From a virus, in IMG/VR virus record IMGVR_UViG_3300028045_000007, positions 64,001 through 128,000 of that record: a stretch of 64,000 nt of DNA. One strand, written 5' to 3'. Positions within the stretch are counted from its first letter, which is position 1. Every line of letters begins with the position of its first letter. Below, piece by piece: positions 1-64,000 of the stretch. The notes under the pieces are model-generated. The model was not told the DNA's origin, ran no database searches, and saw only the letters and a program-made list of their open reading frames with translations. A program made the translations under genes and the position numbers.

Positions 1-8
1 ACTTTCGC

Positions 9-794
9 ATGAATAGTGCGGGTTATTTAGCACACGAAGTCGCGTCGTTTAGCATGTTGAGACGGGTTGCGATGAAGTCAGATGAGACTCCATTATTTCC
101 AGACGATCAGACATTCCTGCGATACAAGAAAGAGTACCCTGAATTAGTATACTTCCTACTTAATGAAGTTATCACGGAGGGTCCACTCGAAACGCACGTC
201 CTAAGACAGATAGCACGCTCTCCCGAATGGAGGCTTGTATGGACCCTCAGTAGAGAGAACCTATCTTCGGTCTTTGGTCGTCCCTCTGGTGATCTCACGC
301 TAAATCAACGTATGGTCACATACTGGAGCCGCGTTTATGACTCTGCGTTTGAGAGTCACGAACCGCCCGAGCATGGCACTATTGATGATGACGATCTTTT
401 CGATCAATGGCTCGCGAATCGTGATCTTGGCGAGACAGAAAGTGCAAAGAGAGACAATGCGATCAACTGTCATGAACGCGGACAGGTGTTAGATGGCGAG
501 TACGTAGAGCAATGCACGTGCGGTGCCAAGATGAGAAACAAAGGTAAGTATCTGGGAGAAAGAGAACGACATGCTCCAGATTGTTTACATGGTACTTGGC
601 ATCGGTATACCCCCGAAGAAAAAGCCGTACACTCACAAAGAATTTATGGTCGCAACTCGAATCATGTGCGTAACCTGATAGACAAAGAACAGGAACAAGT
701 TTTAAACCAGGGCGTAGTAGAAGAGCAGGATCTACGTGGCAAGAACACTAGACAGTTGCTCGGTATGAAATCAAACGTCATTCCTATTAAATAA
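9..794 (+). CDS. hypothetical phage protein (tail-region; may extend upstream of the window)
   Basis: 261-aa ORF, frame open to the window edge; stop overlaps next ATG; upstream of tape measure gene. Confidence 0.6.
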   Translation: MNSAGYLAHEVASFSMLRRVAMKSDETPLFPDDQTFLRYKKEYPELVYFLLNEVITEGPLETHVLRQIARSPEWRLVWTLSRENLSSVFGRPSGDLTLNQRMVTYWSRVYDSAFESHEPPEHGTIDDDDLFDQWLANRDLGETESAKRDNAINCHERGQVLDGEYVEQCTCGAKMRNKGKYLGERERHAPDCLHGTWHRYTPEEKAVHSQRIYGRNSNHVRNLIDKEQEQVLNQGVVEEQDLRGKNTRQLLGMKSNVIPIK

Positions 795-1342
795 TGAAAA
801 GAAATAATCCATCCAGAGATCAATTATCCAAGAGTTTGGATCGCAGAGTGCGACATCTCATGATTCAGACGCTTGAGCAGTTTGAGGATATGTTCCCAGA
901 CATAGACTCTACAAAGCAGGGACACATTTTCAAGGGCGGTATTCGCAACGCTTTTAATGACGTGATACGTGCTCAACGAGACGAGCTACTGGATTACGAG
1001 GTCGATTTTCGTCCGTTACGCATGACCAATGACAATGTTCTTGCGATGACCCAGACGTTCATGCAGACAGTTCAGCATGTTGAAATGGACATATATGCTG
1101 ACGTGCCGAGACTTAGAATTTATGGCGACAAAAACCGAGCCAAGGTTTTAGACTCTGTACGACTTGAGTTTGGCACAGGAGTGATATATCAAGAGGACGA
1201 CCGACTTGTTCTTGAAATTGTTGGTACGCAAAGTTGTGTCGATTGTGTATTATCTATTATGGACCGCTATCGCTTACATGCCAATGTGCATGGTAAGTAC
1301 CAAGAATGGCGGAGCGAGGTTGTTAGACTATATAGGAGTTAG
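794..1342 (+). CDS. hypothetical protein
   Basis: 182-aa ORF, TAATG coupling. Confidence 0.6.
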   Translation: MKRNNPSRDQLSKSLDRRVRHLMIQTLEQFEDMFPDIDSTKQGHIFKGGIRNAFNDVIRAQRDELLDYEVDFRPLRMTNDNVLAMTQTFMQTVQHVEMDIYADVPRLRIYGDKNRAKVLDSVRLEFGTGVIYQEDDRLVLEIVGTQSCVDCVLSIMDRYRLHANVHGKYQEWRSEVVRLYRS

Positions 1343-1344
1343 GA

Positions 1345-2130
1345 ATGGTAGAGCGTAAATTTAAGGCAGCAGATCGTAATGGTACGGTGTGCGATTTTGA
1401 GCTAAAGCCGCCCGGCTTGGCCGAGGAAAACGAAGGCGAACGCCAGTATCGTATAGCCTACAGCAAATCCCTTGTTGAAGGCATCTTCCCTCGTGAAAAG
1501 CTTAGAGAAGTGATGCGAGACCATGGGATGTGGACCGAGGAAGACGACGCCGAACTCAAGAAAGCCGTAGGCAATATTGCTGTGCATCAAATTGAGCTTC
1601 GTAACGCCGAGACCGAAGGTGACGACAAGACATGCGAGAGTGCAGCACAGACAATTGCCGAAGCACGACGTAGAATGTGGGAGCTTTTTCTAGTACAACA
1701 AAGCGTTTACATGAATTCGGCAGAGGGCGTCGCCGAGATGATTAAGACAGAGGCCATTATGGCAACTTGCACGCACGTCCAAGCCACTGGCAAGCCTTAC
1801 TGGAAGGACTATGCCGAGTACGTGCGTGAACGTGACTTAAACCCAAAGTCCACCGTCTATGCTCACGTCATTGAGATTCAGTCTAAGATTCTAGACTCTG
1901 CTCGTGAAGGACTAATGGAGGACTATCCAGAGTACTCGTATCTCAAGAGTGCAGAAGAACGTGTACTGGATCGCGAGGTCGAGGAAGAGGTAGTGAAGGA
2001 GCTTCGCTCGCGTGCCGACAAGGCTATCGCGAAAGACAAGAAGCCAGTTAAAAAGAAGAAGGTAAGTCGCAAGAAGAAGGTGGGGAAACGTGAAAAAGGG
2101 GTGGAAACTAAAACTGATACGACCGGCTGA
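1345..2130 (+). CDS. hypothetical protein, possible tail assembly chaperone
   Basis: AGGAG/AGGA upstream; helical acidic protein with Lys-rich tail; two genes before the tape measure gene (function positional only). Confidence 0.5.
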   Translation: MVERKFKAADRNGTVCDFELKPPGLAEENEGERQYRIAYSKSLVEGIFPREKLREVMRDHGMWTEEDDAELKKAVGNIAVHQIELRNAETEGDDKTCESAAQTIAEARRRMWELFLVQQSVYMNSAEGVAEMIKTEAIMATCTHVQATGKPYWKDYAEYVRERDLNPKSTVYAHVIEIQSKILDSAREGLMEDYPEYSYLKSAEERVLDREVEEEVVKELRSRADKAIAKDKKPVKKKKVSRKKKVGKREKGVETKTDTTG

Positions 2131-7921: not shown

Positions 7922-7924
7922 GCC

Positions 7925-10804: not shown

Positions 10805-10823
10805 ATCAACTGGAGCTATTACA

Positions 10824-11477
10824 ATGCCTGCTGGCGACTTCCCCATAGTACGTATCTTTGAGTGGGATACAACAGAGGTAGCGTCCCCGGTCGGTGACCG
10901 TACGACGCCCGGGGGAACGTTTGCCTTCAAACAAATGGTATCGCTGGGCTGTGCGAGTGCTGACCCTCTTGACCCGGCAACATCCGGAACGCTGGTATTC
11001 CCTGGTACGCAGTTTGACCACACGTCATCGCCCTATGCTTCAGAGTTAGCGTCAACGCCCGTAGCCATCACATTCAATATCGCAGTGAGCGGTACGGCTA
11101 TTTCTGACATTAAACTATATCTCATAGATGATTCTGCTTTTCAAGCGAGTGTAGACGAGGGGCTCGATAGAGCCTTCATGCAGTATGCTCCTAGCGGATC
11201 AATTTGGAAATCGAACTTCACACTACCGTCTGGGTCTATAGAGCGTATTCCCACTACAGTACCAAGCGTACAAAACATCAGGCGTCAAGATGGTTCTAAC
11301 GCACTCGTTGGTACTGATGACACCAATTCGTCCGAATTCGTATATCTGAATATTGTGGTGCCTCTTGGGGCACCCCTGGGGACATTTGGAGTGTGTGGTT
11401 CTGGGTTATTGAGGCTTGGATTAGTTTTTAATTTTTGGAACAACGATTTTATTCTGGAGTTTGGAGATGTCGGATAA
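10824..11477 (+). CDS. virion structural protein (paralog of 9433..9993)
   Basis: GGAG RBS before ATG 10824; shared motifs with 9433..9993. Confidence 0.6.
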   Translation: MPAGDFPIVRIFEWDTTEVASPVGDRTTPGGTFAFKQMVSLGCASADPLDPATSGTLVFPGTQFDHTSSPYASELASTPVAITFNIAVSGTAISDIKLYLIDDSAFQASVDEGLDRAFMQYAPSGSIWKSNFTLPSGSIERIPTTVPSVQNIRRQDGSNALVGTDDTNSSEFVYLNIVVPLGAPLGTFGVCGSGLLRLGLVFNFWNNDFILEFGDVG

Positions 11478-12000
11478 AACCTGTACTAAGTGTCAAACCT
11501 CTAAAATATATGACGACTTCCACAGGGATCGCACCCGTAAAGATGGATACTTTCCCCAATGTAAGACATGCACGAGGCTTTATCGTCAAAGTGAACACGG
11601 GGCAAGGTTACACCGAGAAGGAAACCTACGTTTTCAACAAACACCAAAAGGTAAAGCGTGTCTTCGTAGGGCACAAAGCAAGTATCAACAGTCACCTAAA
11701 GGCAGACTGATGTATCAACAGGCGGCCAGACGACGATTAGCACGTATTGCTGATGCTGACATGTCGCTTACCGATGATGACATACGCCGTGTTCACGAGA
11801 AGTTTAATCATAAATGCTTCAATTGCGGCAATACAGAACGTCTAGAGATTGATCACCATTATCCTTTGTCTATGGGATTTGGCCTTACTGAAGACAACGC
11901 AGTGCTGTTGTGTAGGTCTTGCAATGCGTCCAAAGGAAACAGGATGCCAGAGGATTTTTACCCCGAAGAGAAACTTAGAGTGCTGGTTAGTGTAATATAA
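11467..12000 (+). CDS. free-standing HNH homing endonuclease
   Basis: N-terminal CTKC...CKTC; C-terminal CFNC...LEIDHHYP...N...LCRSCNASK HNH motif. Confidence 0.9.
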   Translation: MSDKTCTKCQTSKIYDDFHRDRTRKDGYFPQCKTCTRLYRQSEHGARLHREGNLRFQQTPKGKACLRRAQSKYQQSPKGRLMYQQAARRRLARIADADMSLTDDDIRRVHEKFNHKCFNCGNTERLEIDHHYPLSMGFGLTEDNAVLLCRSCNASKGNRMPEDFYPEEKLRVLVSVI

Positions 12001-23931: not shown

Positions 23932-23955
23932 CATCTATCGCAAATAGTTACGCAC

Positions 23956-23990: not shown

Positions 23991-24073
23991 GTTGACGATT
24001 GATTGTGCCACTGACACTATACTGGTACCATCCGTGCGTTGGAATAGTCCACGTACGGTTCTGGAGACAAACA

Positions 24074-37634: not shown

Positions 37635-37635
37635 T

Positions 37636-44845: not shown

Positions 44846-45063
44846 TGTTCTGGAGGGGCCACCACTGTTACGAAGTGTGCGGCGTATGTGGTAAGCTAGT
44901 AAGACTAAACAAACCTCTTCTTGGTAGCTTACACATATGTCTTACCGAAGAAGAACGTAACGGTTTTGTGACCCGGGACGGATGCCGTAAGGTCAAGCGT
45001 AGCGTAATAACACACGAGAACGAAAACGGAGCCTGTGGCTTTATTGAGTTTGAAGATGAATAA
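44845..45063 (+). CDS. small Cys-rich hypothetical protein
   Basis: CGVC; TAATG coupling. Confidence 0.45.
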   Translation: MFWRGHHCYEVCGVCGKLVRLNKPLLGSLHICLTEEERNGFVTRDGCRKVKRSVITHENENGACGFIEFEDE

Positions 45064-47995: not shown

Positions 47996-48177
47996 ACTAC
48001 TTCTATGTCAGAAACACCAAGAACGCCGAGGTCATCAAGGGGTTTCACCGCGAAATGATGGTCTGGCAAAGCGAAGAAGAGGCTACGGCATTCATTGAAC
48101 GTTTGCCTGTTGGCCAATCCTCGTGGGAGGTTGCCCGTTGTCCTATTGAAAATCGTCCAGAACAAGAAGACAAATGA
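47992..48177 (+). CDS. small hypothetical protein
   Basis: ATGA-coupled on both ends; GGAGG RBS. Confidence 0.5.
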   Translation: MNYFYVRNTKNAEVIKGFHREMMVWQSEEEATAFIERLPVGQSSWEVARCPIENRPEQEDK

Positions 48178-49091: not shown

Positions 49092-49734
49092 TGTTTTACT
49101 CTGCGTACATAGCCAAGATCATGAACATGATATGCTTTTGCAGCGTGCCCTTGAGTCATTAGTGGCACAAACGTATACAGATTTCGAGACGGTCATCGTG
49201 ATGGACGAGTGCTGGGACGGCACCCGCCACATCGTTGATAGCTATGGTGAGGTGTTAGACTTACGGGTCCATGAACGCCCCCGCAAGGAGGGCTTGGCAG
49301 CAGCTAAGAACTTTGGCCTTAACCATTGCGACCACGAATGGATTGCCTATCTAGACGCCGACGATCAGTGGCTTGATTGCAAGCTCGAAGTGCAGCGGAA
49401 GTGGCTATTGGAGCGACCAGAGGTGGACTTTTGCGGGACAAACGCCTGGGACCTACTTGATGGTGCGATGGTACCCAATTGCTTTGAAGTCACGCAATAC
49501 AGCACGCATAACGATATTGTTGAGAGACTACCTTACGAGAATATCCTTTGTCATGGCAGCATGATGATTCGTCGTTCCGCTCTTCATGCTTTGGGTGGCT
49601 ATAGTCGTGACAAAGTGTTGCTTGGTCGTGAAGATTGGAATCTATGGCAACGAGCCGTGGCTGCCGGATATAACTTCGGCAAAATCGCGGAGAGGCTTTA
49701 CATTTACTCATTAGGAACTAGCGTACCCCGTTGA
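49069..49734 (+). CDS. GT2 glycosyltransferase
   Basis: SLVAQTY.DFE, GLAAAKNFG, IAYLDADD, KLE.Q, EDWNLW.R. Confidence 0.9.
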   Translation: MKETDSISVLLCVHSQDHEHDMLLQRALESLVAQTYTDFETVIVMDECWDGTRHIVDSYGEVLDLRVHERPRKEGLAAAKNFGLNHCDHEWIAYLDADDQWLDCKLEVQRKWLLERPEVDFCGTNAWDLLDGAMVPNCFEVTQYSTHNDIVERLPYENILCHGSMMIRRSALHALGGYSRDKVLLGREDWNLWQRAVAAGYNFGKIAERLYIYSLGTSVPR

Positions 49735-49736
49735 CA

Positions 49737-50390
49737 ATGAATACTAAAGGACATAATCCATTTAAAGATACGCCCGACAATCATGATTTCATGACCGAGG
49801 AGCACGTCTCTGTTTTTCTTCGGAACCACAAGACAGGAGTTGATAATCTGGGACGACACATGCTGGTAGACATAGTTGCACGGTATGATAATCCCAGGGT
49901 GTTGGACATGGCATGTGGCACGTGTGTCAACTGGGATGTATTCAAACAACGCGGACTCAAGTGTCAATATGTTGGTTTAGATCGTACGACCAGTATGATT
50001 CTCGAAGCAGATAAACGCTATGGCACTGAGATCACCCTTCATGAAGGATATGTACAGCGTACAGGGCTACCTGATGACTTCGCCGACATAGCTATTATGC
50101 GACACATACTTGAGCATTTACAGGAGGGGTATGAGGATGCGATTAGAGAGGGGTTGCGTGTTGCCTCCAAGGAACTCGTTGTTGTTTTCTTCTTGACTCC
50201 TTCAAATAAGGATGAGGATGAAGTTAGTGAGTCCGAGCCAGATGAGAATGGCTGCACTTACTTCTGGAATACGTATAGTTGGTCCAAGTTTGCCGAGTTC
50301 GTTGCCACTTTGGGCGTACAGATGAAAGTTGGGCACGTTGTAACCCCTGGTGCCGCTCATGCTGACACGATTGTTCGACTAATCAAATGA
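49737..50390 (+). CDS. class I SAM methyltransferase
   Basis: VLDMACGT, YVGLD, RHILEH. Confidence 0.82.
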   Translation: MNTKGHNPFKDTPDNHDFMTEEHVSVFLRNHKTGVDNLGRHMLVDIVARYDNPRVLDMACGTCVNWDVFKQRGLKCQYVGLDRTTSMILEADKRYGTEITLHEGYVQRTGLPDDFADIAIMRHILEHLQEGYEDAIREGLRVASKELVVVFFLTPSNKDEDEVSESEPDENGCTYFWNTYSWSKFAEFVATLGVQMKVGHVVTPGAAHADTIVRLIK

Positions 50391-51229
50391 TCCCCGACGT
50401 TACGTACTTCATTCTCGACTACAATCCACGCTGTCAAGATCAGGCGAGTGGATATCTTGATGCGTGTATTCGTTCGCTGTATGCCAACCGCAACAGCAGC
50501 ATCACGAGCGAAGTGTACGTGATTGATCAAGGTAATGGTTTTACCGACTACAAGAATGCACTAGCCAACAAGTGTGCTGGCTATGGCTTTCACTTCGTTG
50601 GCCTGGACCACAACAAGGGCATTTCCGGCGGCATCAATCTGGCGGCTCGCCTAAGTCGCAGTCCGCACCTATGTCTAGTGACCTCAGATACGACATTCAC
50701 GCCCGAGCTTGATACAGTGCTTTTGGGAGAGCTAGAAGCACACGATGACATCTATCAAATAACGCCTTCTGTAGATAAAGGAGACATTCCGTATCAGGTG
50801 CAAGGATTCACAGATAGCAAGGATCCTATCCGTTGTGCTGTTCAAGAGCTTACTATTCAGTGCTGGAAAAGAGAAGTGTTTGACGTTATTGGCTACTGGG
50901 ATGAGCGATGGCTTGCTTGTTACGAGTCGGCAGACTATCCCCTGCGGTTATTTCTGACGGGGCGTTGCTCTGCGGCTATCACGCACAAGATTTCCTGCCA
51001 TCACGAGCACAATACTACCTATCACAATGGTTCCCTGGCGGACGCCTACGGTGGGCAGTTTGATCATGGGCCTCTACGTCATATGTGGGACGAGAAGTGG
51101 CCCGGCCTAGACTGGGACATGCTGTACGATCTGACTCAGTACAACGAAACCACGAGAGCCCGTCTTGCCGCCCAGTACTACCAAAACATCGCATTATCAT
51201 GGAACGCTCAGCAATCATCAGGCACCTGA
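50387..51229 (+). CDS. GT2 glycosyltransferase
   Basis: VIDQG, NKGISGGIN, IGYWDE..YESADY. Confidence 0.75.
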   Translation: MIPDVTYFILDYNPRCQDQASGYLDACIRSLYANRNSSITSEVYVIDQGNGFTDYKNALANKCAGYGFHFVGLDHNKGISGGINLAARLSRSPHLCLVTSDTTFTPELDTVLLGELEAHDDIYQITPSVDKGDIPYQVQGFTDSKDPIRCAVQELTIQCWKREVFDVIGYWDERWLACYESADYPLRLFLTGRCSAAITHKISCHHEHNTTYHNGSLADAYGGQFDHGPLRHMWDEKWPGLDWDMLYDLTQYNETTRARLAAQYYQNIALSWNAQQSSGT

Positions 51230-51777
51230 TCCGTGCATACGGCTTTCAGTCCTATCTCGAAATTGGCGTACGTGGTCGCGAGACCCTGAGTCAGATTGAT
51301 CTGTCCGTTGTGGACGGTGTCGATCCGAACGGCCAGGGCAACTATACCATGACCTCCGACGAGTTTTTCGAGTCCCATTGCAAGCGTAGTTATGATATAA
51401 TCTTTGTCGATGGACTACATTTGCATGAGCAGGCCAAAAAAGACATAGAAAATGCCCTGACGCATTTGAGCGACAACGGTATAATTGTAGTACATGACTG
51501 TCTTCCGGAAGAGGAGTGGCATCAGCTACGGGAAGGCATATCTGGGCGTCCCTGGAACGGAGACGTTTGGAAGGCTTTCGCGGATCTGCGATCCGAGAGG
51601 GCCGATCTTAGTATGTATGTTGTGGACACCGATTGGGGTTGCGGCATCATTAGACGTGGTTCTCAGTACCTCTACCCTCGTCCTGATGAGTGGACTTGGG
51701 GGTATTTCAAGCAGCATAGAGACAATATCATGAACGTAGTAACAGTAGAGGAGTTCCTTGGATATTCACAACCGTAA
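51199..51777 (+). CDS. class I SAM methyltransferase (Methyltransf_24-like)
   Basis: YLEIGV, GVDP, TSDEFF, DIIFVDGLH, GIIVVHDC. Confidence 0.82.
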   Translation: MERSAIIRHLIRAYGFQSYLEIGVRGRETLSQIDLSVVDGVDPNGQGNYTMTSDEFFESHCKRSYDIIFVDGLHLHEQAKKDIENALTHLSDNGIIVVHDCLPEEEWHQLREGISGRPWNGDVWKAFADLRSERADLSMYVVDTDWGCGIIRRGSQYLYPRPDEWTWGYFKQHRDNIMNVVTVEEFLGYSQP

Positions 51778-52273
51778 ATGGATCGAGGCGGTAGCCCCGC
51801 AGTACTCGCCTTTCAATCCCGATCAGAAGGTGCTGGAAATTGGCAGTTGGATTGCCCCAGGACAGGAAGAGATCGTGTGTCGCAAGACTATTGCTCCGCT
51901 CGTTGGAGAATACGTCGGATTGGACATGCAGGACGGCAATGGCGTTGATGTTGTATCGGACGCCAAGCTCATGCCGTTCTCTGATGAGCACTTTCATGTA
52001 ATCATCAGTACCGATTGCTACGAACATGTAGATTGGCCTCGTGAAGTGACGCACGAGGCTTATCGTGTTTTGAAGCAAGGTGGCGTGTTCTACCTGACGA
52101 CCGTGTTTGACTTTGAGATTCATGGTTATCCGGATGACTTCTGGAGGTTCACGCCACACTGCATTAGGCTTCTTCTTGAGGACGCTGGATTTGAAGCGGT
52201 AGAGGTGACGGGGTGCGGCGGACCACATGCAAAGCGTCCGTGTATCGTCAGAGGAATAGGTATCAAGCGATGA
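51758..52273 (+). CDS. class I SAM methyltransferase
   Basis: VLEIGS, YVGLD, EHV, RVLKQGG, HGYPDDFWRFT. Confidence 0.85.
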   Translation: MDIHNRKWIEAVAPQYSPFNPDQKVLEIGSWIAPGQEEIVCRKTIAPLVGEYVGLDMQDGNGVDVVSDAKLMPFSDEHFHVIISTDCYEHVDWPREVTHEAYRVLKQGGVFYLTTVFDFEIHGYPDDFWRFTPHCIRLLLEDAGFEAVEVTGCGGPHAKRPCIVRGIGIKR

Positions 52274-52803
52274 AGCTGAATCTGGCCAGCCACGGAGACA
52301 ATCGCGAGGGGTATGTGAACGTTGACTTCGATCACCCCGCCGCCGACCTGAAGGCAGACGTTACCGATTTGTTTACGATAGAAGATGAGTCAGTCGATGA
52401 GATCCTTGCCTTTCACATCCTAGAGCACTTCCGTGCTGGACATTACGAGCCGCACCTGTCCAATCCCCTCAATCCGAGAACAGTGATAGAGGCCCTGGCC
52501 GAGTGGAAGCGTGTCCTCAAGCCGGGCGGCAGACTGGAGATCAAGGTGCCTGACTTTGAGAAGGTCATTTGGCTTTTCCAGAACTTTCCCACGTGGTCTA
52601 GGAAGCCAGGTGGTAACGATCCATTCCCCGCATACTCTGACTGGCTTGTGTCCAATGGACAGCATCAGTGTATTTTCGACAGGCCAACCATGCTAAGCGT
52701 GCTACGGGCGGTCGGCTTTCGAGACATCAACTTTGTTGACTCGTCGCCCGAGGCAGTTGTCAATCGTGAAAACATAGAAATGTATGTAGTGTGTAGTAGA
52801 TGA
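52270..52803 (+). CDS. SAM methyltransferase-like protein
   Basis: KLNLA, GYVNVD, SVDEI.A.HILEH, RVLKPGG.LEI.VPD. Confidence 0.8.
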   Translation: MKLNLASHGDNREGYVNVDFDHPAADLKADVTDLFTIEDESVDEILAFHILEHFRAGHYEPHLSNPLNPRTVIEALAEWKRVLKPGGRLEIKVPDFEKVIWLFQNFPTWSRKPGGNDPFPAYSDWLVSNGQHQCIFDRPTMLSVLRAVGFRDINFVDSSPEAVVNRENIEMYVVCSR

Positions 52804-52837
52804 TCTTGAAATTGATCATATCGATCCCATGATAAAG
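52778..52837 (+). pseudogene. HNH endonuclease remnant
   Basis: Translates KCM*CVVDDLEIDHIDPMIK; compare KCFNCGNTERLEIDHHYP in 11467..12000. Confidence 0.5.
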
Positions 52838-52852
52838 GAAAACAATAGCGTA

Positions 52853-53824
52853 ATGAAAGTACTAATCACAGGAGCCCACGGCTTCGTAGGACATCACGTC
52901 GTCCGGGAGCTTGAAAAAGAGCATGAGCTTTTGACGCCTTCGCGTCGAGAGTTGAATTTACTGTACACGACAGATCCATGCGGAGATCCACTAAGGGAAA
53001 CTGAAGAGTACTTGAGGCGTAAGTCTGTAGATGCCATTGTGCATCTTGCGGCAACCTGCGGCGGCATTGGTATCAACAAAGACAACCCCGGCAAGTTCAT
53101 GTATGACAACCTACAGATGGGGATCAACGTGCTGGAGGCAGCACGCCTCGCGAACGTCTCAAAGGTTGTGGTACTCGGAACTGTTTGTGCCTATCCTAAG
53201 TTTACACCTATTCCTTTTCGAGAAAAAGACATTTGGAATGGCTATCCAGAAGAGACAAATGCCCCCTATGGCATAGCAAAGAAGACAGTCATGGAGATGG
53301 GTATTGCGTATTCGCGTCAGTATGGCATGAACATCACCAACCTCGTTCCTGTGAATATGGCGGGCGAGTGGGACAACTTTGACGAGTACAGCAGTCACGT
53401 GATCCCAGCACTGATCAAGAAGTTTGAGAACCCACACGGTACGGCCATACCCACCGTAGAACATGGTTACTACTGTGATCCCACGGTGGTGTTGTGGGGT
53501 ACTGGTTCTGCTTCACGCGAATTCCTATATGCTGGTGATTGTGCAAGAGCTATCGCGGTAGCTCTCGTGAAAAACACTGGTCCAGAACCAATCAACCTTG
53601 GTACCGGCAACGAAGTTACTATCAAGGATCTTGCGGAATTGGTAAAGCGGGTTGGTAAGTATGACGCCAATATCGTATGGGATCCTACGAAGCCAGATGG
53701 GCAGCCCAGACGTAGCCTAGACATTACAAGGGCACAGAATGTACTGAGGTGGAACGCTACCACTTCACTCTTTGAAACGGTACGTAGAACAATTGAGTGG
53801 TATAGAACAAATGGATCAGTATAG
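52853..53824 (+). CDS. fcl: GDP-L-fucose synthase (GDP-4-keto-6-deoxymannose epimerase/reductase)
   Basis: ITGAHGFVG, HLAA.CGGI, GTVCAYPK, PYGIAK, SHVIPALI, WGTG..SREFL, KPDGQPRR. Confidence 0.92.
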   Translation: MKVLITGAHGFVGHHVVRELEKEHELLTPSRRELNLLYTTDPCGDPLRETEEYLRRKSVDAIVHLAATCGGIGINKDNPGKFMYDNLQMGINVLEAARLANVSKVVVLGTVCAYPKFTPIPFREKDIWNGYPEETNAPYGIAKKTVMEMGIAYSRQYGMNITNLVPVNMAGEWDNFDEYSSHVIPALIKKFENPHGTAIPTVEHGYYCDPTVVLWGTGSASREFLYAGDCARAIAVALVKNTGPEPINLGTGNEVTIKDLAELVKRVGKYDANIVWDPTKPDGQPRRSLDITRAQNVLRWNATTSLFETVRRTIEWYRTNGSV

Positions 53825-54296
53825 TACACATACAGAGCTTCTAAAGTTTTTGATGGACAACCTTGCCATCGAAACAGTTTTGGAGTTAGGCATGGGACAC
53901 TTCAGCACCCCGTTGTTTCGGAGCTATCCAGGCGTTAGTTTAGTTAGCCTGGACTCTGACATCAATTGGGTCAATCAATTCAGTCCCGGTCCTAATCACA
54001 CCGTTGGTGCCTACCCACTACTGGGGTTTGCTCGCAACGTGACTTGGTTTGATTTAGCTTTTGTTGATGGTAATCCAGCCAGCGAACGTGCCGCCTGTGT
54101 ACAAGAGCTTTTGCTCAAAACTAGACTGGTTGTAGCACATGACACGGGTCCAGAAGACAATTGGAATTATCACTATGACGAGATCGTATTACCAGAAGGC
54201 TTTGTGCGTTTAGACTATACGAAAAAGTCACCGTGGACATCTGTTTTCACTGCTGACGCAGAAGTTATTGCTAAGGTACAAGAGTTCAATGGGTAG
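53811..54296 (+). CDS. methyltransferase-like protein
   Basis: VLELGMG.FST, DLAFVDG, VVAHD. Confidence 0.65.
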   Translation: MDQYSTHTELLKFLMDNLAIETVLELGMGHFSTPLFRSYPGVSLVSLDSDINWVNQFSPGPNHTVGAYPLLGFARNVTWFDLAFVDGNPASERAACVQELLLKTRLVVAHDTGPEDNWNYHYDEIVLPEGFVRLDYTKKSPWTSVFTADAEVIAKVQEFNG

Positions 54297-54927
54297 AAAA
54301 ATCTTCCTAGATGTCGGGTGTAATACTGGTCAGTCTCTTGAGGCTGCACTAGACCATGACTTTGATGTCGTCTATTGTTTTGAGCCGGTGATGGAGTATT
54401 GTCAGTCGTTACAGTCTGGCGTCTTGTCTTCTGATGTCGGTTCTGGCATTGCAGAAAGACCTTACGACCAAACCAGGGTGGTCATTTGTCCCTTTGGACT
54501 TTGGGTCAATACCGAGCGTATTTCTGTACATAGTCCTCACACAATGGCAGCGTCAGTGTTTGACGACCACCAGGACAGCGAGGGCGGCACCACAGAGTGT
54601 CAGTTTGTCAAGGCTTCCGAGTGGTTACGACATCACATCACCGACGACGATTTTGTTGTCATGAAAATGAATTGTGAGGGTAGCGAGTGTACCATTCTGG
54701 ACCATCTAATGGACAGTGATACTATACACTTGATCGATCACATTATGGTTGATTTTGATGCAATGAAGATTCCGTCCCAACGCCATAGACCGCAGCGTAC
54801 TATTTGGAACCTGAACAATCATGGTGTTGATTACGTGTTCGCCGAGGACGTTATGTGCGGGGCTACCCACCACGATCGTATTTGCTATTGGCTAAAAGAA
54901 AAGGTTGAGGAGATCAATGAACGATAA
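54289..54927 (+). CDS. FkbM-family methyltransferase
   Basis: FLDVGCNTG, YCFEP, VMKMNCEGSE. Confidence 0.8.
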   Translation: MGRKIFLDVGCNTGQSLEAALDHDFDVVYCFEPVMEYCQSLQSGVLSSDVGSGIAERPYDQTRVVICPFGLWVNTERISVHSPHTMAASVFDDHQDSEGGTTECQFVKASEWLRHHITDDDFVVMKMNCEGSECTILDHLMDSDTIHLIDHIMVDFDAMKIPSQRHRPQRTIWNLNNHGVDYVFAEDVMCGATHHDRICYWLKEKVEEINER

Positions 54928-55951
54928 AACAGCAATTGTTACTGGTATTACAGGACAGGACGGATTCTATCTCGCCCACTATCTACTCTCGTTGGGCTAT
55001 CGTGTCATTGGCGTAGTGCGTCGTACGTCCATGCCCACAGACTGTCGTTTACGTACGTTGCGTGGCAGCCCCAATCTACATCTGGTACAGGGAGACGTTA
55101 CTGACATTTCCAGTTTACAAAAGGCCGTGCGTGACTTTGCTCCCGATGAGTTCTATCACCTAGGGGCACAGAGTCACGTGGCTATGTCTTGGGAGTATCC
55201 CTTGGCCACCGCAGACATCACGGGTATTGGCGTACTCAACTGTCTAGAGGCTATTCATACAGAGAAGCCAGACTGTAGATTCTATTTTGCTGGCAGCAGC
55301 GAGCAATTCGGCAATTCGATCGGTAAGCCTATCGAGGGAGAGATTCAGAACTACCTCAATGAAGATTCGCCGATGCATCCCGAGTCTCCTTACGCCGTGA
55401 GTAAGGTTTTCGGATACAATATGACTAGAGTTTATCGTAGGTCGTTCGACATGTTCGCGTCCTGCGGTATTCTGTTTAACCATGAGTCACCGGTTCGAGG
55501 TGAAGAATTTGTGACTCGCAAAATTACGAGCCAACTGGCTCGTGTGAAGTGGGGATTACAAGAGTACGTTGAGCTTGGCAATATGGACGCCTGCCGTGAC
55601 TGGGGATTCGCTGGAGACTATGTGCGTGGTATGCACGCCATACTACAGCACGATGAACCAGATGACTTCGTTCTAGCGACTGGCGAAACCAATTCCGTCA
55701 AGACGTTTTTCCAGAGATGCTGCCAGTGGTTTGATTTAGATCCGGATGAGGTCTATAAGGTCAATCCAAAGTTCATGCGTCCCAAGGACATCAACGTACT
55801 ATTGGGCGATAGCTTGAAAGCACGCAGCACGTTGGGTTGGGAGCCCACTTGTGCGTTCGATCAACTAGTAGACAAGATGTGTCAGTACGACTATCATCTA
55901 CAGTCGCCAGATCCAGCTTATACCCGTCAAGCAGACGAGTTTCTATTTTAG
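54917..55951 (+). CDS. gmd: GDP-mannose 4,6-dehydratase
   Basis: TGITGQDG, AQSHV, SPYAVSK, GILFNHESP.RG..FVTRKI, LGN.DA.RDWG.A.DYV. Confidence 0.95.
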   Translation: MNDKTAIVTGITGQDGFYLAHYLLSLGYRVIGVVRRTSMPTDCRLRTLRGSPNLHLVQGDVTDISSLQKAVRDFAPDEFYHLGAQSHVAMSWEYPLATADITGIGVLNCLEAIHTEKPDCRFYFAGSSEQFGNSIGKPIEGEIQNYLNEDSPMHPESPYAVSKVFGYNMTRVYRRSFDMFASCGILFNHESPVRGEEFVTRKITSQLARVKWGLQEYVELGNMDACRDWGFAGDYVRGMHAILQHDEPDDFVLATGETNSVKTFFQRCCQWFDLDPDEVYKVNPKFMRPKDINVLLGDSLKARSTLGWEPTCAFDQLVDKMCQYDYHLQSPDPAYTRQADEFLF

Positions 55952-58036: not shown

Positions 58037-58341
58037 AGGTTACTGTACAATCAGGTAATGTTACCGTTGAAGCCGAAGGGCAAAAAGAACTGTTTGAAAC
58101 CCTAGCGACATATCAGGAGGTTTTTGGCATCTCTTCATGCAAGGGATGCAAGGGCACTAACCTCCGGTACGTTGTTCGCAAGAAGGAAGACGGCAAGAAG
58201 AAGACACACACGTACTATGAACTCCAGTGTCAAGAGTGTCGTGCCAAGCTCCCCTTTGGGCAGCACGTCGATCAGCCCACCCTGTTTCCCAAGAATTGGA
58301 TTCGTTGGGATCGCGACAACAATCAAGAGGTAGAACTGTAG
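58033..58341 (+). CDS. Zn-ribbon hypothetical protein
   Basis: CKGC...CQEC. Confidence 0.55.
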   Translation: MKVTVQSGNVTVEAEGQKELFETLATYQEVFGISSCKGCKGTNLRYVVRKKEDGKKKTHTYYELQCQECRAKLPFGQHVDQPTLFPKNWIRWDRDNNQEVEL

Positions 58342-58829
58342 TGCCTGTCCTTTCTGTATATCCCACGGGGCCAGACTCTAAAATGCCTACCCAGTCAACA
58401 ACTAGGGCACAGTGTATTGATTTCTATGCTGCCGAAGACGCCGTAATTGATCCAGGCCAAACCGTTCTGGTTGACCTCGGCGTCAAGGTGGTTCTGCCTG
58501 AGGGATATGGACTGGAATTTCGAGAACGTTCCGGTCTTGCCGTCAAGGGGATTATCATTGGTGGTGGGATTATTGATGAAGACTATCATGGCACACTCAA
58601 GGCGATCGTGCGATATATGACTTCTATTCCTCCCGTCACGGGTGCAGCGGTACCCGAGTTCAATCCCGTGATTGTCAAAGCTGGCGACAAGATTGTGCAG
58701 GCGGAACTAGTGAAGAGAATCCCGATTGAGATTCGATGCATTAACGAAGGTGCTCTCCAGCGAGCAATAGACCATTCCCAAAGAGGCGAAAAAGGATTTG
58801 GTAGCACAGATGAAAATCCCGAATCGTAA
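58341..58829 (+). CDS. dut: trimeric dUTPase
   Basis: RSGLA, GIIDEDYHG, GDKIVQ, RGEKGFGST. Confidence 0.92.
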   Translation: MPVLSVYPTGPDSKMPTQSTTRAQCIDFYAAEDAVIDPGQTVLVDLGVKVVLPEGYGLEFRERSGLAVKGIIIGGGIIDEDYHGTLKAIVRYMTSIPPVTGAAVPEFNPVIVKAGDKIVQAELVKRIPIEIRCINEGALQRAIDHSQRGEKGFGSTDENPES

Positions 58830-59100: not shown

Positions 59101-60332
59101 TGGCTCAACATAACAACTATTGGTTCGGCACACGCCCGACGCGACAATCTGTTTCGTCGGGCCTTATTCGCACTGTAGATACACTCATCATCGGTGGTGG
59201 CATTGCTGGGATAACCTTATTGGGTCGCCTTATCGGTAGCGGCGTTACTAATACGTATCTCGTTGAAGATAGCACTGTCGGTTACCATGCTTCTGGTCGC
59301 AGTGCTGGTCAACTCATGTTACGTGGCGGCGAACTGTTCTCGCAAATGCCCCAGAAAGATGGCATCGAGTATTTACAGTTTATGATTGATAACAATCAGC
59401 GATTCATAAACGGACTCCGTAACACAAAGTCCGATACGGATTTACGTGAGTCTGGTGGGTTGAGACTTGCTACCACGCACGAAGAATTTGAGTTGCTCAA
59501 ACAAGAGTCCGAGTTTATTTTACAACACGGTAACATAGACTGTCCCATCCTGACGACCAGCGAACTCAAGACGTTTTTTCCCCACAATTGTGGCTTCACT
59601 GGTGGAATATATGTGCCTACCGAGGCGACGTGTAACCCGTATAAGGTTGTGAACGAATTGCGGGAACTTATTGAGGACAAAGGAGCTAGGGTGCTTACGG
59701 GTTGTTGTGTAGATGATGTTATACGCAACCCCGACGATAGTTTCAGTGTGTCAATTCGTCACAAGGGCACCATCAAAGCGAAGCGAATAGTGTATTGTAT
59801 GGGAGCATATACCTCAGAACTGTTGCCCGAACTGGCGGAGTATACAGAAAGCTTTAGAGGTCAAATGATTGCTACCGACACCTTGGAAGATAGCGTGCTA
59901 CAGTCATTGCCTCAGATGAGCGTTACGTATAACCACGGCAATGAATATTGGCGTCTGTATGCTGGCCGACTATTGGCTGGTGGCATGCGTCATTCTATTC
60001 GCGGTGCTCAAGTGGGCATTAGCGATGACGGCGAGTTCAGTCCTGCGGTGTATGATAGGCTACGTCAGTTCATTAAGGACACGTTGCCGGTCACTAAAAG
60101 AGTCAAATTTACGCACGTATGGTCTGGTGTAATGAGTAAAACACTGGACCAATTGCCGTTAATTGGTTCGCTTCCTGGTCGTCCCAACGAATTTGTATTT
60201 ACCTGCTTCAATGGCTATGGCTATAGCCACGTTATGCATGGTAGTATGATTTTAAAGGACATCGTAATCAATGGCGAGTCAATGCGTCCTGGTGCCCGGC
60301 TATTCGATCCCGCGAGGTTTAATCATGCTTGA
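59100..60332 (+). CDS. FAD-dependent oxidoreductase (DAO/PuuB-like)
   Basis: IIGGGIAG, ASGRSAG, WSG..T.D.LPLIG, FNGYG. Confidence 0.85.
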   Translation: MAQHNNYWFGTRPTRQSVSSGLIRTVDTLIIGGGIAGITLLGRLIGSGVTNTYLVEDSTVGYHASGRSAGQLMLRGGELFSQMPQKDGIEYLQFMIDNNQRFINGLRNTKSDTDLRESGGLRLATTHEEFELLKQESEFILQHGNIDCPILTTSELKTFFPHNCGFTGGIYVPTEATCNPYKVVNELRELIEDKGARVLTGCCVDDVIRNPDDSFSVSIRHKGTIKAKRIVYCMGAYTSELLPELAEYTESFRGQMIATDTLEDSVLQSLPQMSVTYNHGNEYWRLYAGRLLAGGMRHSIRGAQVGISDDGEFSPAVYDRLRQFIKDTLPVTKRVKFTHVWSGVMSKTLDQLPLIGSLPGRPNEFVFTCFNGYGYSHVMHGSMILKDIVINGESMRPGARLFDPARFNHA

Positions 60333-62220
60333 GTTGGGCAAATTACAACACGAAATTTTCGACAAACGATACGCCATGCCAGACGAGACCGAGTGGTCTC
60401 AATTAGCCAAGAGGGTTGGTGACAACATCGCCCTCATGGAGTTAAATGGCCTTGCTTCTGAGTGGAGCAAGAAATTCCGAGAGGTAATTGCCGCTGGCGA
60501 CTTTATGCCAGGAGGACGCATCCTCTTTGGTGCTGGTCGCAGACAGTTCAATATGCTTAACTGTTTTAGGCTACACCCAGAAGATACTGTCGAGAGCATC
60601 GGCAACGCCATGCGAGATACCTATCTTATTTCGTGTGGAGGTGGCGGGATTGGCTATAACTTCTCTGATATTCGGCCCAAGGGTGACGACATTCAGAACA
60701 TTCGCTGGTCTGCTCCCGGTGTTGTGTCAGTCATTAAAATGAAAAACGAGGTAGGGGATCATGTACGTAGCGGCAAGAATCGTCGCACTGCCCTTATAGC
60801 TATCCTCAATGTCACCCATCCAGACCTATTCGATTTTCTGCACGTTAAGCTAGATCTAGCACAGCTTGCCAATTTCAATATTTCTGTTGGCATTACCAAT
60901 GAGTTCATTGATGCCGTCAAGAAGAACAAGAAGTGGCATTTCAAGTTTAACGGTCGTCGTTATTACACGTACGAGATTGATCGAGCGACCCCTACTGGTG
61001 GCCGTCCTAAGATCGAGACGATTCGTGTTACAGCACTCAACGAAGAGGATGCTCTTGGCCGAGCACGAGCTTATTGCCGTATAAGCGAAAAAGATCGGCT
61101 TGAAAATGTCCGCATGTACGATCTGTACGCTCGCGAGATTTGGGATACGATCATCACGAACAGTTGCGAGAGCGGCGAGCCGGGCATATACAATATCGAT
61201 TTCGCCAATAGATATACGAACGTGTCGTATTTCGAGAGCTTGGACGCTCCCAATCCATGTGGCGAAATTCCCCTGCCTCCATACGGGAACTGCTGCCTGG
61301 GGCATATCAATCTGTCTCACATGTACAACCCCAAGACCAACGACGTACAATGGAAGAAGTTGGCGGCGACCATCCGTACCGCAGTACGATTCCTAGACGA
61401 CGTACTCAGCGTTAACCACTACCCCATCCCCGAGTGCAAGACCGTTGGTGAGCGTTCCCGCCGGATTGGCTTGGGCGTGACTGGTTTACACTATCTTCTT
61501 TTGAAGTTGGGATACGTATACGGTGATGAGAAGTGCCTAGAATTCTTAGATCGATTGTTCGCGACCATTCGCAATGAAGCATATAAAGCTTCTATTGATC
61601 TTGCCAGGGAGAAGGGAGCCTTCCCCGCGTTCGACGTAGACAAGTACTCTCAGGAGGAGTTTTTCCAGCAGTTGCCTCCACGCATTCAGAATTCCATTAA
61701 GAAATATGGCATTCGCAATGCTGTCATGTTGACTATTGCTCCGTGCGGCACCAACAGTATGGTACTGGGCGTCTCCTCTGGTATTGAGCCAATTTATGCA
61801 CCCGTGTACATGCGTCGCTTCCTAGACGGCAATGTGTGGCGTGAGGAATACGTGGCCGACCCGCTATTCTCGGAGTTCTATAGGGGAGGGAAGGACTACT
61901 CTCATTTTGTAGGTACCCACGATATTACCCCTGAAGTACATATTCAGGTACAAGGCACGATCCAAAAATACGTTGACTCCTCTATATCGAAGACTATTAA
62001 TCTACCTGAGGACTTCACGCCCGATACGTTAGGCGATGTGATCTTGGAACACGTCGAATACGTCAAGGGATTAACCGTGTATCGTACTGGCTCGAAAGGC
62101 ATGGAGCCCTTCACGTCTATCGATACGTCGTCTCCTGAAAAACTACAACAGGCTATGGAGCAGGCCGATACTGGCCTTGAGTCTAATGATGCTTGTCGTA
62201 GTGGCTCTTGTGAACTGTAA
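60325..62220 (+). CDS. nrdJ: class II (adenosylcobalamin-dependent) ribonucleotide reductase
   Basis: FMPGGR, NCF, NFNISV, SGEPG, NPCGE, CCLGHINL, RRIGLGVTG, TIAP.G, SISKTIN; no adjacent nrdB; C-terminal CRSGSC. Confidence 0.85.
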   Translation: MLELGKLQHEIFDKRYAMPDETEWSQLAKRVGDNIALMELNGLASEWSKKFREVIAAGDFMPGGRILFGAGRRQFNMLNCFRLHPEDTVESIGNAMRDTYLISCGGGGIGYNFSDIRPKGDDIQNIRWSAPGVVSVIKMKNEVGDHVRSGKNRRTALIAILNVTHPDLFDFLHVKLDLAQLANFNISVGITNEFIDAVKKNKKWHFKFNGRRYYTYEIDRATPTGGRPKIETIRVTALNEEDALGRARAYCRISEKDRLENVRMYDLYAREIWDTIITNSCESGEPGIYNIDFANRYTNVSYFESLDAPNPCGEIPLPPYGNCCLGHINLSHMYNPKTNDVQWKKLAATIRTAVRFLDDVLSVNHYPIPECKTVGERSRRIGLGVTGLHYLLLKLGYVYGDEKCLEFLDRLFATIRNEAYKASIDLAREKGAFPAFDVDKYSQEEFFQQLPPRIQNSIKKYGIRNAVMLTIAPCGTNSMVLGVSSGIEPIYAPVYMRRFLDGNVWREEYVADPLFSEFYRGGKDYSHFVGTHDITPEVHIQVQGTIQKYVDSSISKTINLPEDFTPDTLGDVILEHVEYVKGLTVYRTGSKGMEPFTSIDTSSPEKLQQAMEQADTGLESNDACRSGSCEL

Positions 62221-62264: not shown

Positions 62265-62270
62265 ACTGCT

Positions 62271-62576
62271 ATGACACAACCCAAGCCCAAAGAGAAGTTT
62301 GTTTTTACCCACCCCAAAGACGAAGACGGTAACGATATCCTGTTCCGCTTTATGTTGACGCTAGATCGCAAGATCAGTAGTCTCGGCAAGACGTTGCCCG
62401 ATTCGATTGGTACCATCGACGGCATTGATGCCGTAGTGCCCCAAGTAGGCATGTATACAATGGAGATTGCTATCGCTCGCACTTTCGATCCGGCAGAGGT
62501 CATTGAGGAAATCAAGAGACGTTTGAAGGATGTTTTGAGCGACATCATTCGTCCCAATAAAGAACTCATCGTTTAG
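62271..62576 (+). CDS. hypothetical protein (weak Nfu N-terminal-like pattern)
   Basis: IDGIDAV...YTMEIAIARTFD.AEV.EEI. Confidence 0.5.
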   Translation: MTQPKPKEKFVFTHPKDEDGNDILFRFMLTLDRKISSLGKTLPDSIGTIDGIDAVVPQVGMYTMEIAIARTFDPAEVIEEIKRRLKDVLSDIIRPNKELIV

Positions 62577-62579
62577 ACT

Positions 62580-63278
62580 ATGGACAAAGGACATACTATT
62601 CCCATTCTAGGGGGAGGGTACGTACGCTATGTCGATCATCTTGGGTCGGATCAGCGTATTACTGAGACAGCTCGTATATCGTATCTGTCTCCCTCGAAGG
62701 GTGAATTGCAGGATAAGGAGCTACTTTTCTACCTATTCAAGAAGAGGCACACAAGTCCATTTGAGTCGTCCAACATCACATTCAATATTCGCATGCCTAT
62801 CTTTTGTATGCGGCAGTTCGTGAGACATCGTACGTTCAGATTGAATGAGCAGTCGGGACGGTATTCTGAGCTGCCCAGTGATTTCTACGTGCCCGACGTG
62901 TGGCGAGGACCAGACGATATCAATAGACAAAGCAGCGTTCCCGTGCGGCGTGACCTCCCTGGACACGAAGAGTGGCACGAAGAGAACGACAGACTGGCAC
63001 GGGGGCTGTTTGCCGAAGCGTACGCCGTCTATCAAGAGTTTTTGAATCGTGGCGTCGCTAAAGAGCTTGCTCGCATTGTATTGCCGGTTGGTATCTTTAC
63101 TGAGATCTATGTAAGTTGTGACGTACATAACCTTATCCATTTCTTGAATCTTAGACAAGATTCCCATGCTCAATGGGAGATGCGAGAGATTGCTAATGCG
63201 ATGAGTGAAGCGTTTCAAAAATTCTTTCCCTGGTGTGCAGAAGCACGCAGTAAATACAAATGGAGACTAGTAGAATGA
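62580..63278 (+). CDS. thyX: flavin-dependent thymidylate synthase
   Basis: ARISY, HTSPFE, RQFVRHRTFRLNEQSGRY, ELARIVLP, LR...HAQWE. Confidence 0.95.
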   Translation: MDKGHTIPILGGGYVRYVDHLGSDQRITETARISYLSPSKGELQDKELLFYLFKKRHTSPFESSNITFNIRMPIFCMRQFVRHRTFRLNEQSGRYSELPSDFYVPDVWRGPDDINRQSSVPVRRDLPGHEEWHEENDRLARGLFAEAYAVYQEFLNRGVAKELARIVLPVGIFTEIYVSCDVHNLIHFLNLRQDSHAQWEMREIANAMSEAFQKFFPWCAEARSKYKWRLVE

Positions 63279-63796
63279 AGAAAATCGTATTGGTGCTTGG
63301 TGTTATCGGCGGACTTGCCGCAGGAGGCTGGGCCTTGTATAGTGCAGCCCCCATGCAGCCACAGCCACAAGGCGTGGAGACCGATTGTGAATCGACCAAT
63401 CCTTACAAGCCTGAAAACGCTCCTGGATGTCCACAGGGACCTATCTATTGTCCCGTTCCGCAGGAGATCGATTGGGATTGTGTCAAGAAGGCTCAGAAGA
63501 AATACGAAGACGACATGGCCACCCTGTACGGACTAGCGTATGGCTGGTATGACCACGCTTGCGAATCTTTTGAGAGCGAGGTCGAAGGTATTGATAAAGC
63601 GTATGCCGCTTGCGTTGACAGTGGAACTCCAGAGGAGGTCTGTGCTCGCCGCCAAAATTTCAGTTACAAAATTGCCCTAGACGTGTATGCGTCTAGACTT
63701 GAAGGTCAACAGAAAAGCGTGTCTGAGTGGACGGACAAAATTGCTATGCAGTACTGGGAAGATGTTTCGAAATGCTGCGTTGAGGGAGATCAGTAA
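63275..63796 (+). CDS. exported/membrane-anchored Cys-rich protein
   Basis: MKKIVLVLGVIGGLAAGGWALY N-terminus; 9 Cys. Confidence 0.6.
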   Translation: MKKIVLVLGVIGGLAAGGWALYSAAPMQPQPQGVETDCESTNPYKPENAPGCPQGPIYCPVPQEIDWDCVKKAQKKYEDDMATLYGLAYGWYDHACESFESEVEGIDKAYAACVDSGTPEEVCARRQNFSYKIALDVYASRLEGQQKSVSEWTDKIAMQYWEDVSKCCVEGDQ

Positions 63797-64000
63797 TGTT
63801 TAAGAGGATTCTAGGATTACTGGGCATTGGCTTGCTTTCGCTGGGCGTTCTTGCGATGACTGCCGACGCACAACTTGTCGCGTCCGCTCACCGTATTTGG
63901 AGTCAAGTACTTGGCCCCGCTAACAGTGCTAGTCTTGTCAGTGTCAATCTGCGGGGCGTGTATGTTACTCCCGGTCCAGGTGCGGCTGGTGTATTCCTAC
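63796..64000 (+). CDS. signal-peptide protein, partial (runs off the window)
   Basis: MFKRILGLLGIGLLSLGVLAMTADA-QLV..., open to the end. Confidence 0.55.
   Translation, partial: MFKRILGLLGIGLLSLGVLAMTADAQLVASAHRIWSQVLGPANSASLVSVNLRGVYVTPGPGAAGVFL

Follow-up and report, generated by a model that had tools for sequence, protein, structure and literature searches.

The Twort-like staphylococcal phages, phage K among them, are large lytic phages with genomes of more than 100 kb that are free of GATC, the site of the host enzyme Sau3AI, and this absence is kept across the genus though only some host strains carry Sau3AI. Restriction-site avoidance of this kind is a textbook phenomenon, and we claim no new mechanism for it. 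Here, we describe the absence of another tetranucleotide, GCGC, the word recognized by the HhaI and HinP1I type II systems, from a 64,000-base stretch of DNA (the window) that covers bases 64001-128000 of the 154,408-bp IMG/VR record IMGVR_UViG_3300028045_000007 (hereafter G000). The record derives from an uncultured, siphovirus-like phage of about 154-169 kb, and we followed the missing word through the whole record and through the relatives of this phage.

For phages with double-stranded DNA (dsDNA) at large, the survey of Rusinov et al. 2018 (BMC Genomics 19:885, PMC6286503) found near-complete elimination to be confined essentially to orthodox type II sites and to be strongest in non-temperate phages; in phages with hydroxymethyl-cytosine, no site avoidance was detectable. 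Avoidance of type IIS or IIG sites is rare according to published surveys.

An exact count recovered no GCGC in the window, against 208.7 copies expected on base composition and 143.6 under a Markov model of maximal order. An earlier note on this DNA had reported exactly this absence alongside frequent CGCG, GGCC, CCGG, GATC and TCGA, and the exact counts of these comparison words (102, 157, 146, 324 and 230, respectively) bear out both statements. The GC content of the window is even, at 45-51% per 4-kb block. When the count was extended to the whole G000 genome, for which CheckV gives a completeness of 99%, GCGC was again found 0 times, nowhere near the expectation of 398 (Markov) or 576 (base composition). 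The feature can accordingly be given in a single line:

1..64000, both strands: GCGC-free DNA, spanning the whole window and the whole genome, genes as well as intergenic DNA

As a null model, we shuffled synonymous codons within each of 226 open reading frames (ORFs), keeping the protein and the per-gene codon usage fixed. Over 200 shuffles, the G000 ORFs carried 416 +/- 17 GCGC, with a minimum of 378, against the 0 observed.

The way in which the sites are missing is visible at codon junctions. The alanine codon GCG occurs in 0 of 791 cases before codons that begin with C, yet it makes up 18-27% of alanine codons before those beginning with A, G or T. Likewise, the arginine codon CGC is found in 0 of 750 cases after codons ending in G and accounts for 21-23% of arginine codons after those ending in A, C or T. 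Before an alanine (GCN) codon, AGC, TGC, CGC and GGC are used in 0 of 362 cases, the T-ending synonym always standing in their place, though all four are used freely elsewhere. The remark in the earlier note that Ala-Arg and Gly-Ala junctions take forms that avoid GCGC is thus confirmed. Dipeptide frequencies are normal, with 241 Ala-Arg pairs observed against 240 expected and Gly-Ala normal as well. The purge of GCGC is achieved entirely through synonymous codon choice that depends on the neighboring codon, and this strict codon context, together with the normal dipeptides, indicates that selection acts on the DNA word and not on the proteins.

GCGC is not the only word missing from this genome. 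A scan of all 4,096 hexamers returned nine that have a count of zero and do not contain GCGC, and every one of them is palindromic. Five further palindromes (ACGCGT, CGGCCG, CTCGAG, GCCGGC and ACCGGT) are retained in only 1-4 copies each, where about 36 are expected, and the interrupted palindromes CAGN3CTG, CCTN5AGG and GGGNCCC are also near zero. The absent hexamers and the leftover copies that fall in the window are as follows:

Zero-count hexamers, whole G000 genome, exact count: AGGCCT, CAGCTG, CCGCGG, CTGCAG, GACGTC, GAGCTC, GGGCCC, GTCGAC, GTGCAC
Leftover CTCGAG in the window: 33786
Leftover CGGCCG in the window: 16365
Leftover ACCGGT in the window: 5033, 10750, 46082, 55489

We defined a specificity as purged when its count lies at or below 10% of expectation. 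A scan of half-site/gap/half-site patterns then gave 16 purged palindromic six-base specificities in G000, a level reached by just 1 of 624 composition-matched non-palindromic controls, and a scan of the 617 recognition sequences in the Biopython table added ACCWGGT, CAGNNNCTG, GACNNNGTC and CCTNNNNNAGG to the purged set. Matched against the same table, the purged words of G000 are well-known type II enzyme specificities and strictly palindromic. Not every palindrome is affected: TCGCGA, AAGCTT, CACGTG and TGATCA are among those at or above expectation, and CGCG, GGCC and TGCA are mildly low, at 0.68-0.71 of the Markov expectation. The earlier note is thus right about GCGC itself but overlooked the many other purged palindromes.

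To place these losses in a phyletic context, we recovered relatives from IMG/VR by means of the phage polymerase gene:

31254..34562, + strand: DnaE-like DNA polymerase III alpha (PHROG 405; Pfam PHP/DNA_pol3_alpha), the marker for finding relatives

Searches anchored on this protein returned 16 loci with 55-79% identity, and GCGC was absent from all 16, where 10-76 copies are expected; this set partly overlaps with the one anchored on the major capsid protein (MCP) that is described below, and the partial loci recovered from other metagenomes number about 30. Counts over the whole records of seven further near-complete relatives, 137-183 kb in length, gave the same picture:

G001, 169 kb: GCGC 0 observed, 587 expected
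G002, 161 kb: GCGC 0 observed, 340 expected
G003, 152 kb: GCGC 0 observed, 493 expected
G004, 137 kb: GCGC 1 observed, 339 expected
G006:C4, 158 kb: GCGC 0 observed, 761 expected
G070, 177 kb: GCGC 0 observed, 276 expected
G071, 183 kb: GCGC 0 observed, 537 expected

The sole GCGC among the eight genomes of the clade lies at position 23993 of G004, in the context GGCGCC, within the major capsid gene (G004 23533-24570), a highly conserved gene. The median protein identity of the G000 ORFs to these seven relatives is 43-62%. At such divergence, silent sites have turned over many times, so the zero must be actively maintained and is not simply inherited.

Across the clade, the hexamers fall into a stable core and a variable remainder. 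AGGCCT, CTGCAG, GTGCAC, CTCGAG, CCGCGG and GAGCTC are missing or nearly missing from almost all its genomes, and GACGTC and CAGCTG from most of them. By contrast, GTCGAC, GGGCCC, ACGCGT, CACGTG, AGTACT, GGTACC, ATCGAT, CGATCG, CCATGG, CACN3GTG, CACN4GTG, CCAN5TGG, GCGNCGC and GAAN4TTC differ from genome to genome, with no copies in some and the expected number in others. Altogether, 13-43 palindromic six-base specificities are purged per genome (the tallies for G070 and G071 include hexamers that contain GCGC and would lie somewhat below this range without them), as against 0-7 of the 624 composition-matched non-palindromic patterns. In each of G000 to G004, the zero-count hexamers without GCGC are all palindromic, or all but one.

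Individual members of the clade show further peculiarities. G006:C4, with 43 purged palindromic specificities, is also strongly depleted in TTAA (27 observed, 493 expected). Certain non-palindromic words are depleted in single genomes, namely CACTGC (BtsI-type; 2 observed, 78 expected) in G001, and CTGAAG (AcuI/Eco57I-type; 7 and 74) and CAGCTC (1 and 55) in G002, possibly because sites of type IIS or IIG enzymes are avoided there. In G003, large coding regions at about 1-12,000 and 130,000-142,000 consist of 18-bp (six-residue) repeats, in which CCATCGGC and its complement occur 187 times at spacings that are multiples of 18 bp. This pattern suggests giant hexapeptide-repeat proteins, possibly beta-helix-like, at both ends of the contig.

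An alignment search with the MCP, which recovered 21 IMG/VR loci, delineated the boundary of the trait. At an MCP identity of at least 77%, 13 of 14 loci have no GCGC, the remaining one, with its single copy, being the G004 contig. At 61-64% identity, the five loci found carry GCGC in observed/expected numbers of 45/53, 56/61, 48/54, 78/41 and 124/52. The MCP tree resolved the same division into two clades, each with 100/100 support: one of 17 rows, in which GCGC is missing and GATC is normal, and one of 5 rows, in which GCGC is present. Two genomes of this sister clade, G067 (IMGVR_UViG_3300033145_000192) and G068 (IMGVR_UViG_3300038379_000173), turned out to have lost other tetramers:

G067, 177 kb: GATC 0 observed, 691 expected; GTAC 0 observed, 691 expected; GCGC 497 observed, 610 expected
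G068, 167 kb: GATC 0 observed, 641 expected; GCGC 1007 observed, 437 expected

In G067, the purged six-base palindromic specificities number 37 and include GGATCC, AGATCT, TGATCA, CGATCG, GGTACC and CGTACG. The flanking contexts of GCGC distinguish the two clades further. In G067, only the palindromic AGCGCT, GGCGCC and CGCGCG among the 16 contexts are at zero, and each of the others, TGCGCA and the 12 non-palindromic ones, keeps 20-66 copies; the GCGC-free clade has lost all 16, which argues that the agent acting there has a true four-base specificity. Three sister-clade loci of the G067 lineage lack all ten core hexamers, and this shared absence suggests that the loss of the hexamers began, at least in part, before that of GCGC. 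The elimination of GCGC is a derived trait of one clade, laid over a hexamer purge that is shared with part of its sister.

We also surveyed the genes by which a phage might protect its DNA in other ways. No C5 DNA methyltransferase (PF00145) was found in ten phage records of the group. In G000, the search for an N4/N6 methyltransferase gave only a sub-threshold match to PF01555, and neither a thymidylate-synthase-type hydroxymethylase (PF00303) nor a DpdA/TGT homolog of the 7-deazaguanine pathway (PF01702) was recovered; these negatives apply to the gene families tested. The genome does encode ThyX, a dCMP deaminase, a dUTPase and a ribonucleotide reductase (RNR), a set that amounts to a canonical nucleotide supply. 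Most of these genes lie in the window, as does an island of about 20 kb that encodes glycosyltransferases, methyltransferases and GDP-sugar enzymes:

35823..55951, + strand: island of glycosyltransferase, methyltransferase and GDP-sugar genes, about 20 kb
52853-53824, + strand: GDP-L-fucose synthase, within the island
54917-55951, + strand: GDP-mannose-dehydratase-like gene, within the island
58341..58829, + strand: dUTPase (PF00692), canonical dNTP supply
60271..62220, + strand: ribonucleotide reductase large subunit
62580..63278, + strand: ThyX flavin-dependent thymidylate synthase (PF02511), whose product is ordinary dTMP

Judged by these gene families, the DNA of G000 appears to be unmodified and unmethylated when it enters the host. 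This agrees with the earlier note, which had taken the missing GCGC as a sign that no hypermodification shields the DNA: hydroxymethylase and DpdA/TGT genes are missing, the dNTP genes are canonical, and site avoidance is undetectable in the surveyed hydroxymethyl-cytosine phages. The methyltransferases of the island belong to small-molecule families (Methyltransf_11/23/24/25) and not to those of DNA methyltransferases, and its enzymes use GDP-sugars. A genome under strong pressure to lose sites is unlikely to be one protected by glycosylation, so we consider it very unlikely that DNA glycosylation protects G000, and a non-DNA target for the island, for example virion proteins or a glycan, is favored. 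That such a target had been proposed before is reasonable in view of the site avoidance, the apparent lack of modification pathways and the GDP-sugar enzymes. A search with the GDP-fucose synthase retrieved more than 100 relatives, many of them on contigs of 110-183 kb; for two products of the island, an exact protein match on record was not found.

The remaining gene content is that of a large phage with its own replication machinery. Structure and packaging are represented by a 1,727-aa tape measure protein, TerL, a portal protein and an HK97-like MCP, and the replication genes encode the DnaE-type polymerase, a DnaB-like helicase, a primase and RecA. ClpP, sigma factors, a dNMP kinase and UDG are encoded in addition to the nucleotide-supply genes named above, as are an Rnl1-type RNA ligase and an Acb5-like protein. 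One nuclease gene of the window lies in the tail module:

11467..12000, + strand: HNH endonuclease gene (PF01844), tail module, with no link to GCGC

The phage is probably lytic; a tyrosine integrase (PF00589) was not found in G000, serine recombinases and repressors not having been searched for. Its three tRNAs (Met-CAU, Leu-UAG and Leu-CAA), located in the record but outside the window, are uninformative about the host, and a PHROG scan of ten unannotated G000 proteins for a lysin or another clue to the host type gave nothing useful. An ENA contig of 168,638 bp (ERZ27250555, k141_4152857) represents the same phage and is about 14 kb longer than the IMG/VR record, so that the latter, despite its CheckV value of 99%, may be short of some part of the genome or of a terminal repeat. 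The phage is also present in the samples SRR8436476 and IMG 3300072015.

Outside the window, the right arm of G000 (138,000-150,000) holds a cluster of counter-defense and repair genes, comprising the Acb5-like protein, the T4 Rnl1-type RNA ligase, a nucleoside deoxyribosyltransferase-like protein, the dNMP kinase, an RNase T-like exonuclease, an SbcC-like ATPase, a second sigma factor and UDG. Some words are over-represented: GCTTGAAA / CTTGAAAA occur in 27-45 copies, against about 5 expected, in G000, G001, G002 and G006:C4, and CAGTATAC / AGTATACC are strongly over-represented in G000. A phage promoter that recurs along the genome, with these words as its -35 and -10 boxes, is the probable reason.

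The host was sought by several routes. When 12 kb of the window were compared by megablast with 50,697 phage isolates, no match came up, and tblastn reached identities of at best 34% (polymerase) and 28% (TerL); with no close cultured relative, the host cannot be inferred by homology. Scanning one genome per prokaryote species with the MCP returned a single match, at 91% MCP identity, on a 157,945-bp contig in the metagenome-assembled genome (MAG) of Hydrogenophaga sp. ECS22B1. This contig, the G006:C4 of the list above (NZ_JAILWB010000012.1), is a complete-looking whole phage with 52.7% GC and 0 GCGC. Of the other MAG contigs that were sampled, most have 64-69% GC; in the sampled bacterial contigs, GCGC is 1.4-1.9 times as frequent as expected, and palindromes are not avoided. 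Given a GC content of 67% for the MAG against 53% for the phage contig, we suspect mis-binning: the presence of the contig in this RefSeq MAG is probably contamination, and the binning with Hydrogenophaga is a weak host lead. Matches to the C5 methyltransferase family (1-6 each) in 30 of 61 sampled genomes of Hydrogenophaga are unremarkable. The actinophage marker WhiB was not found, the cyanobacterial word HIP1 was not enriched, the ESM Atlas clusters for the MCP were viral only, the clusters of NCBI-derived homologs yielded no additional organism names, and literature searches for the sample and assembly, and for a methylome that combines the purged motifs, found nothing relevant. The purged words are nearly all GC-rich, as would fit a GC-rich host.

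We consider it highly probable that the missing words record a selection that type II restriction enzymes of the hosts have exerted over a long time on the unmodified DNA of a lytic phage. This reading rests on the restriction of the losses to palindromes, their match to known specificities, the lineage-variable set of hexamers, the exchange of one tetramer for others in the sister clade, and the fact that neither a phage methyltransferase or hypermodification gene nor an integrase was found. The interpretation of the earlier note, which saw a host restriction system behind the absence of GCGC, is supported on the same grounds: only palindromes are hit, their set switches between lineages, and the phages have no detected C5 methyltransferase. 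As we picture the process, phage DNA would enter the host unmodified and unmethylated, and orthodox type II restriction endonucleases of the host would cut it at short palindromes. Variants carrying GCGC (the target of HhaI/HinP1I-type enzymes) or GC-rich hexamer palindromes would be removed by selection over a long period, the sites being lost without protein change through synonymous codons set by the neighboring codon. Further specificities would be gained and lost in each lineage, tracking the restriction repertoires of different host populations.

The agent need not be ubiquitous. If mutations occur at about 1e-8 to 1e-7 per base and a few thousand single-base changes can create GCGC, a rough estimate puts the origin of new sites at about 1e-4 per genome replication, and a selective cost of about 1e-3 would then suffice to hold GCGC near zero. 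At so low a cost, it would be enough if a small share of the host strains carried a GCGC-cutting enzyme, which need not be a lineage-wide trait. Several observations nevertheless weigh against selection by host restriction enzymes. No GCGC-specific restriction enzyme or cognate methyltransferase was seen; the role of restriction enzymes as selecting agent and the host carrying them are what we infer. The one candidate host genome, the Hydrogenophaga MAG, has no C5 methyltransferase and no Cas1, and its own contigs show no avoidance of the purged words. On the phage side, restriction enzymes are so diverse that some of the many unannotated genes may encode one, and the apparent lack of DNA modification is read from missing gene families.

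Among the other explanations, those that dispense with selection on the word fare worst. That sequencing, assembly or database processing created the zero has next to no probability, as nothing was found in favor of such an artefact and more than 20 different IMG metagenomes contributed records with the same zero; identical proteins are found in an ENA assembly and in a Logan assembly of an SRA run, a relative from the clade sits in an NCBI MAG, and the bacterial contigs of that same MAG are rich in GCGC. These independent metagenomes and GCGC-rich contigs effectively refute it. Scarcely more credible is a bias in mutation or composition, be it through the deamination of methylated GCGC or through codon usage, although the mildly low CGCG, GGCC and TGCA could be taken to hint at one. 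Codon usage and proteins alone predict the several hundred sites of the shuffled ORFs; the one-step neighbors of GCGC are evenly and mildly raised, with GTGC and GCAC at 1.07-1.24 like the others, so that no signature of deamination is seen; and a bias would leave unexplained the near-total zero in eight genomes beside normal or high counts in the sister clade. Shuffles, neighbor words and sister-clade counts together effectively refute it.

The explanations that keep selection but change its agent call for closer comparison. A GCGC-specific nuclease encoded by the phage might shred host DNA while the site-free phage genome is immune, and it would find a target every 40-60 bp or so if the host is GC-rich. 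The absence of GCGC is invariant across a deeply diverged clade in which hexamer purges vary, as a constant, phage-borne agent would predict, and 62 G000 ORFs, mostly without known function, are present in all complete GCGC-free genomes and undetectable in both sisters. We hold this to be very improbable all the same. A HinP1I-like enzyme (PF11463) is absent from five genomes of the clade, the recognizable nucleases (HNH, PD-(D/E)XK, ERCC4, RNase T and SbcCD-like) are of ordinary replication, recombination and packaging types, and the precomputed Pfam annotation, which covers most of the genome but leaves many ORFs unannotated, includes no restriction-enzyme family. The 62 clade-specific ORFs are uninformative, as the sisters share just 24 detectable ORFs; an invariant zero would, on the mutation-selection estimate, need no constant agent; and the total purges of GATC and GTAC in the sister clade, like the variable hexamers, most simply share one cause, host restriction. 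A broader version, in which the constant agent is either such a nuclease, with immunity through site loss, or, in a milder form, a near-universal core endonuclease of the host that cuts GCGC, is quite unlikely. Were the host form true, the tetramer-zero profile (GCGC, GATC, GTAC or TTAA) would serve as a host-lineage barcode for this widespread phage family, with its uncultured members of 150-180 kb. Finally, GCGC could be read by a non-classical host defense, be it another sequence-specific nuclease or a system independent of methylation, for which the missing cognate C5 methyltransferase in the only candidate host genome might speak. We regard this as quite improbable, since GCGC behaves like the words purged along with it, which are known, strictly palindromic type II specificities, and since the published surveys confine elimination essentially to orthodox type II sites (PMC6286503).

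If host type II restriction is indeed the cause, these uncultured phages, a family with genomes of about 140-180 kb, offer a clean natural experiment, with a GCGC-free clade set against one that is mostly GATC-free, and the dozens of hexamer specificities that switch between genomes would form a readable record of the restriction repertoires faced. The purged-site profile would also provide a testable key for host prediction in a widespread family of large uncultured phages: the hosts are predicted to carry systems directed at GCGC, CTGCAG, GTGCAC, AGGCCT, CTCGAG, CCGCGG and GAGCTC, and to have these sites methylated.

Measured against the systems described so far, the case is distinguished by its scale and its clean phylogenetic structure, with 0 sites against up to 761 expected, up to 43 specificities in one genome and a switch of tetramer in the sister clade. 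The HhaI and HinP1I type II systems recognize GCGC (Biopython table), precisely the word missing in all 16 contexts; however, the host candidate yielded neither an enzyme nor a methyltransferase of this kind, and the phages no HinP1I-like gene. Compared with phage K, the missing word is GCGC and not GATC, the lineage is unrelated, many more hexamers are purged alongside, and it is the sister clade that purged GATC instead. A close likeness is to the non-temperate dsDNA phages surveyed by Rusinov et al. 2018 (BMC Genomics 19:885, PMC6286503), which, like G000, show complete or near-complete loss of orthodox type II sites; in the survey, the effect is strongest in phages without a prophage stage or hypermodification, a description that G000 probably fits, and, as here, it operates at the DNA level through synonymous changes. 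Unlike the cases in that survey, which are defined by a match between avoided site and host enzyme, the G000 clade is known from phage sequence alone; it combines one tetramer with 13-43 six-base specificities per genome, and its tetramer purge maps to one well-supported clade whose sister purged other tetramers.

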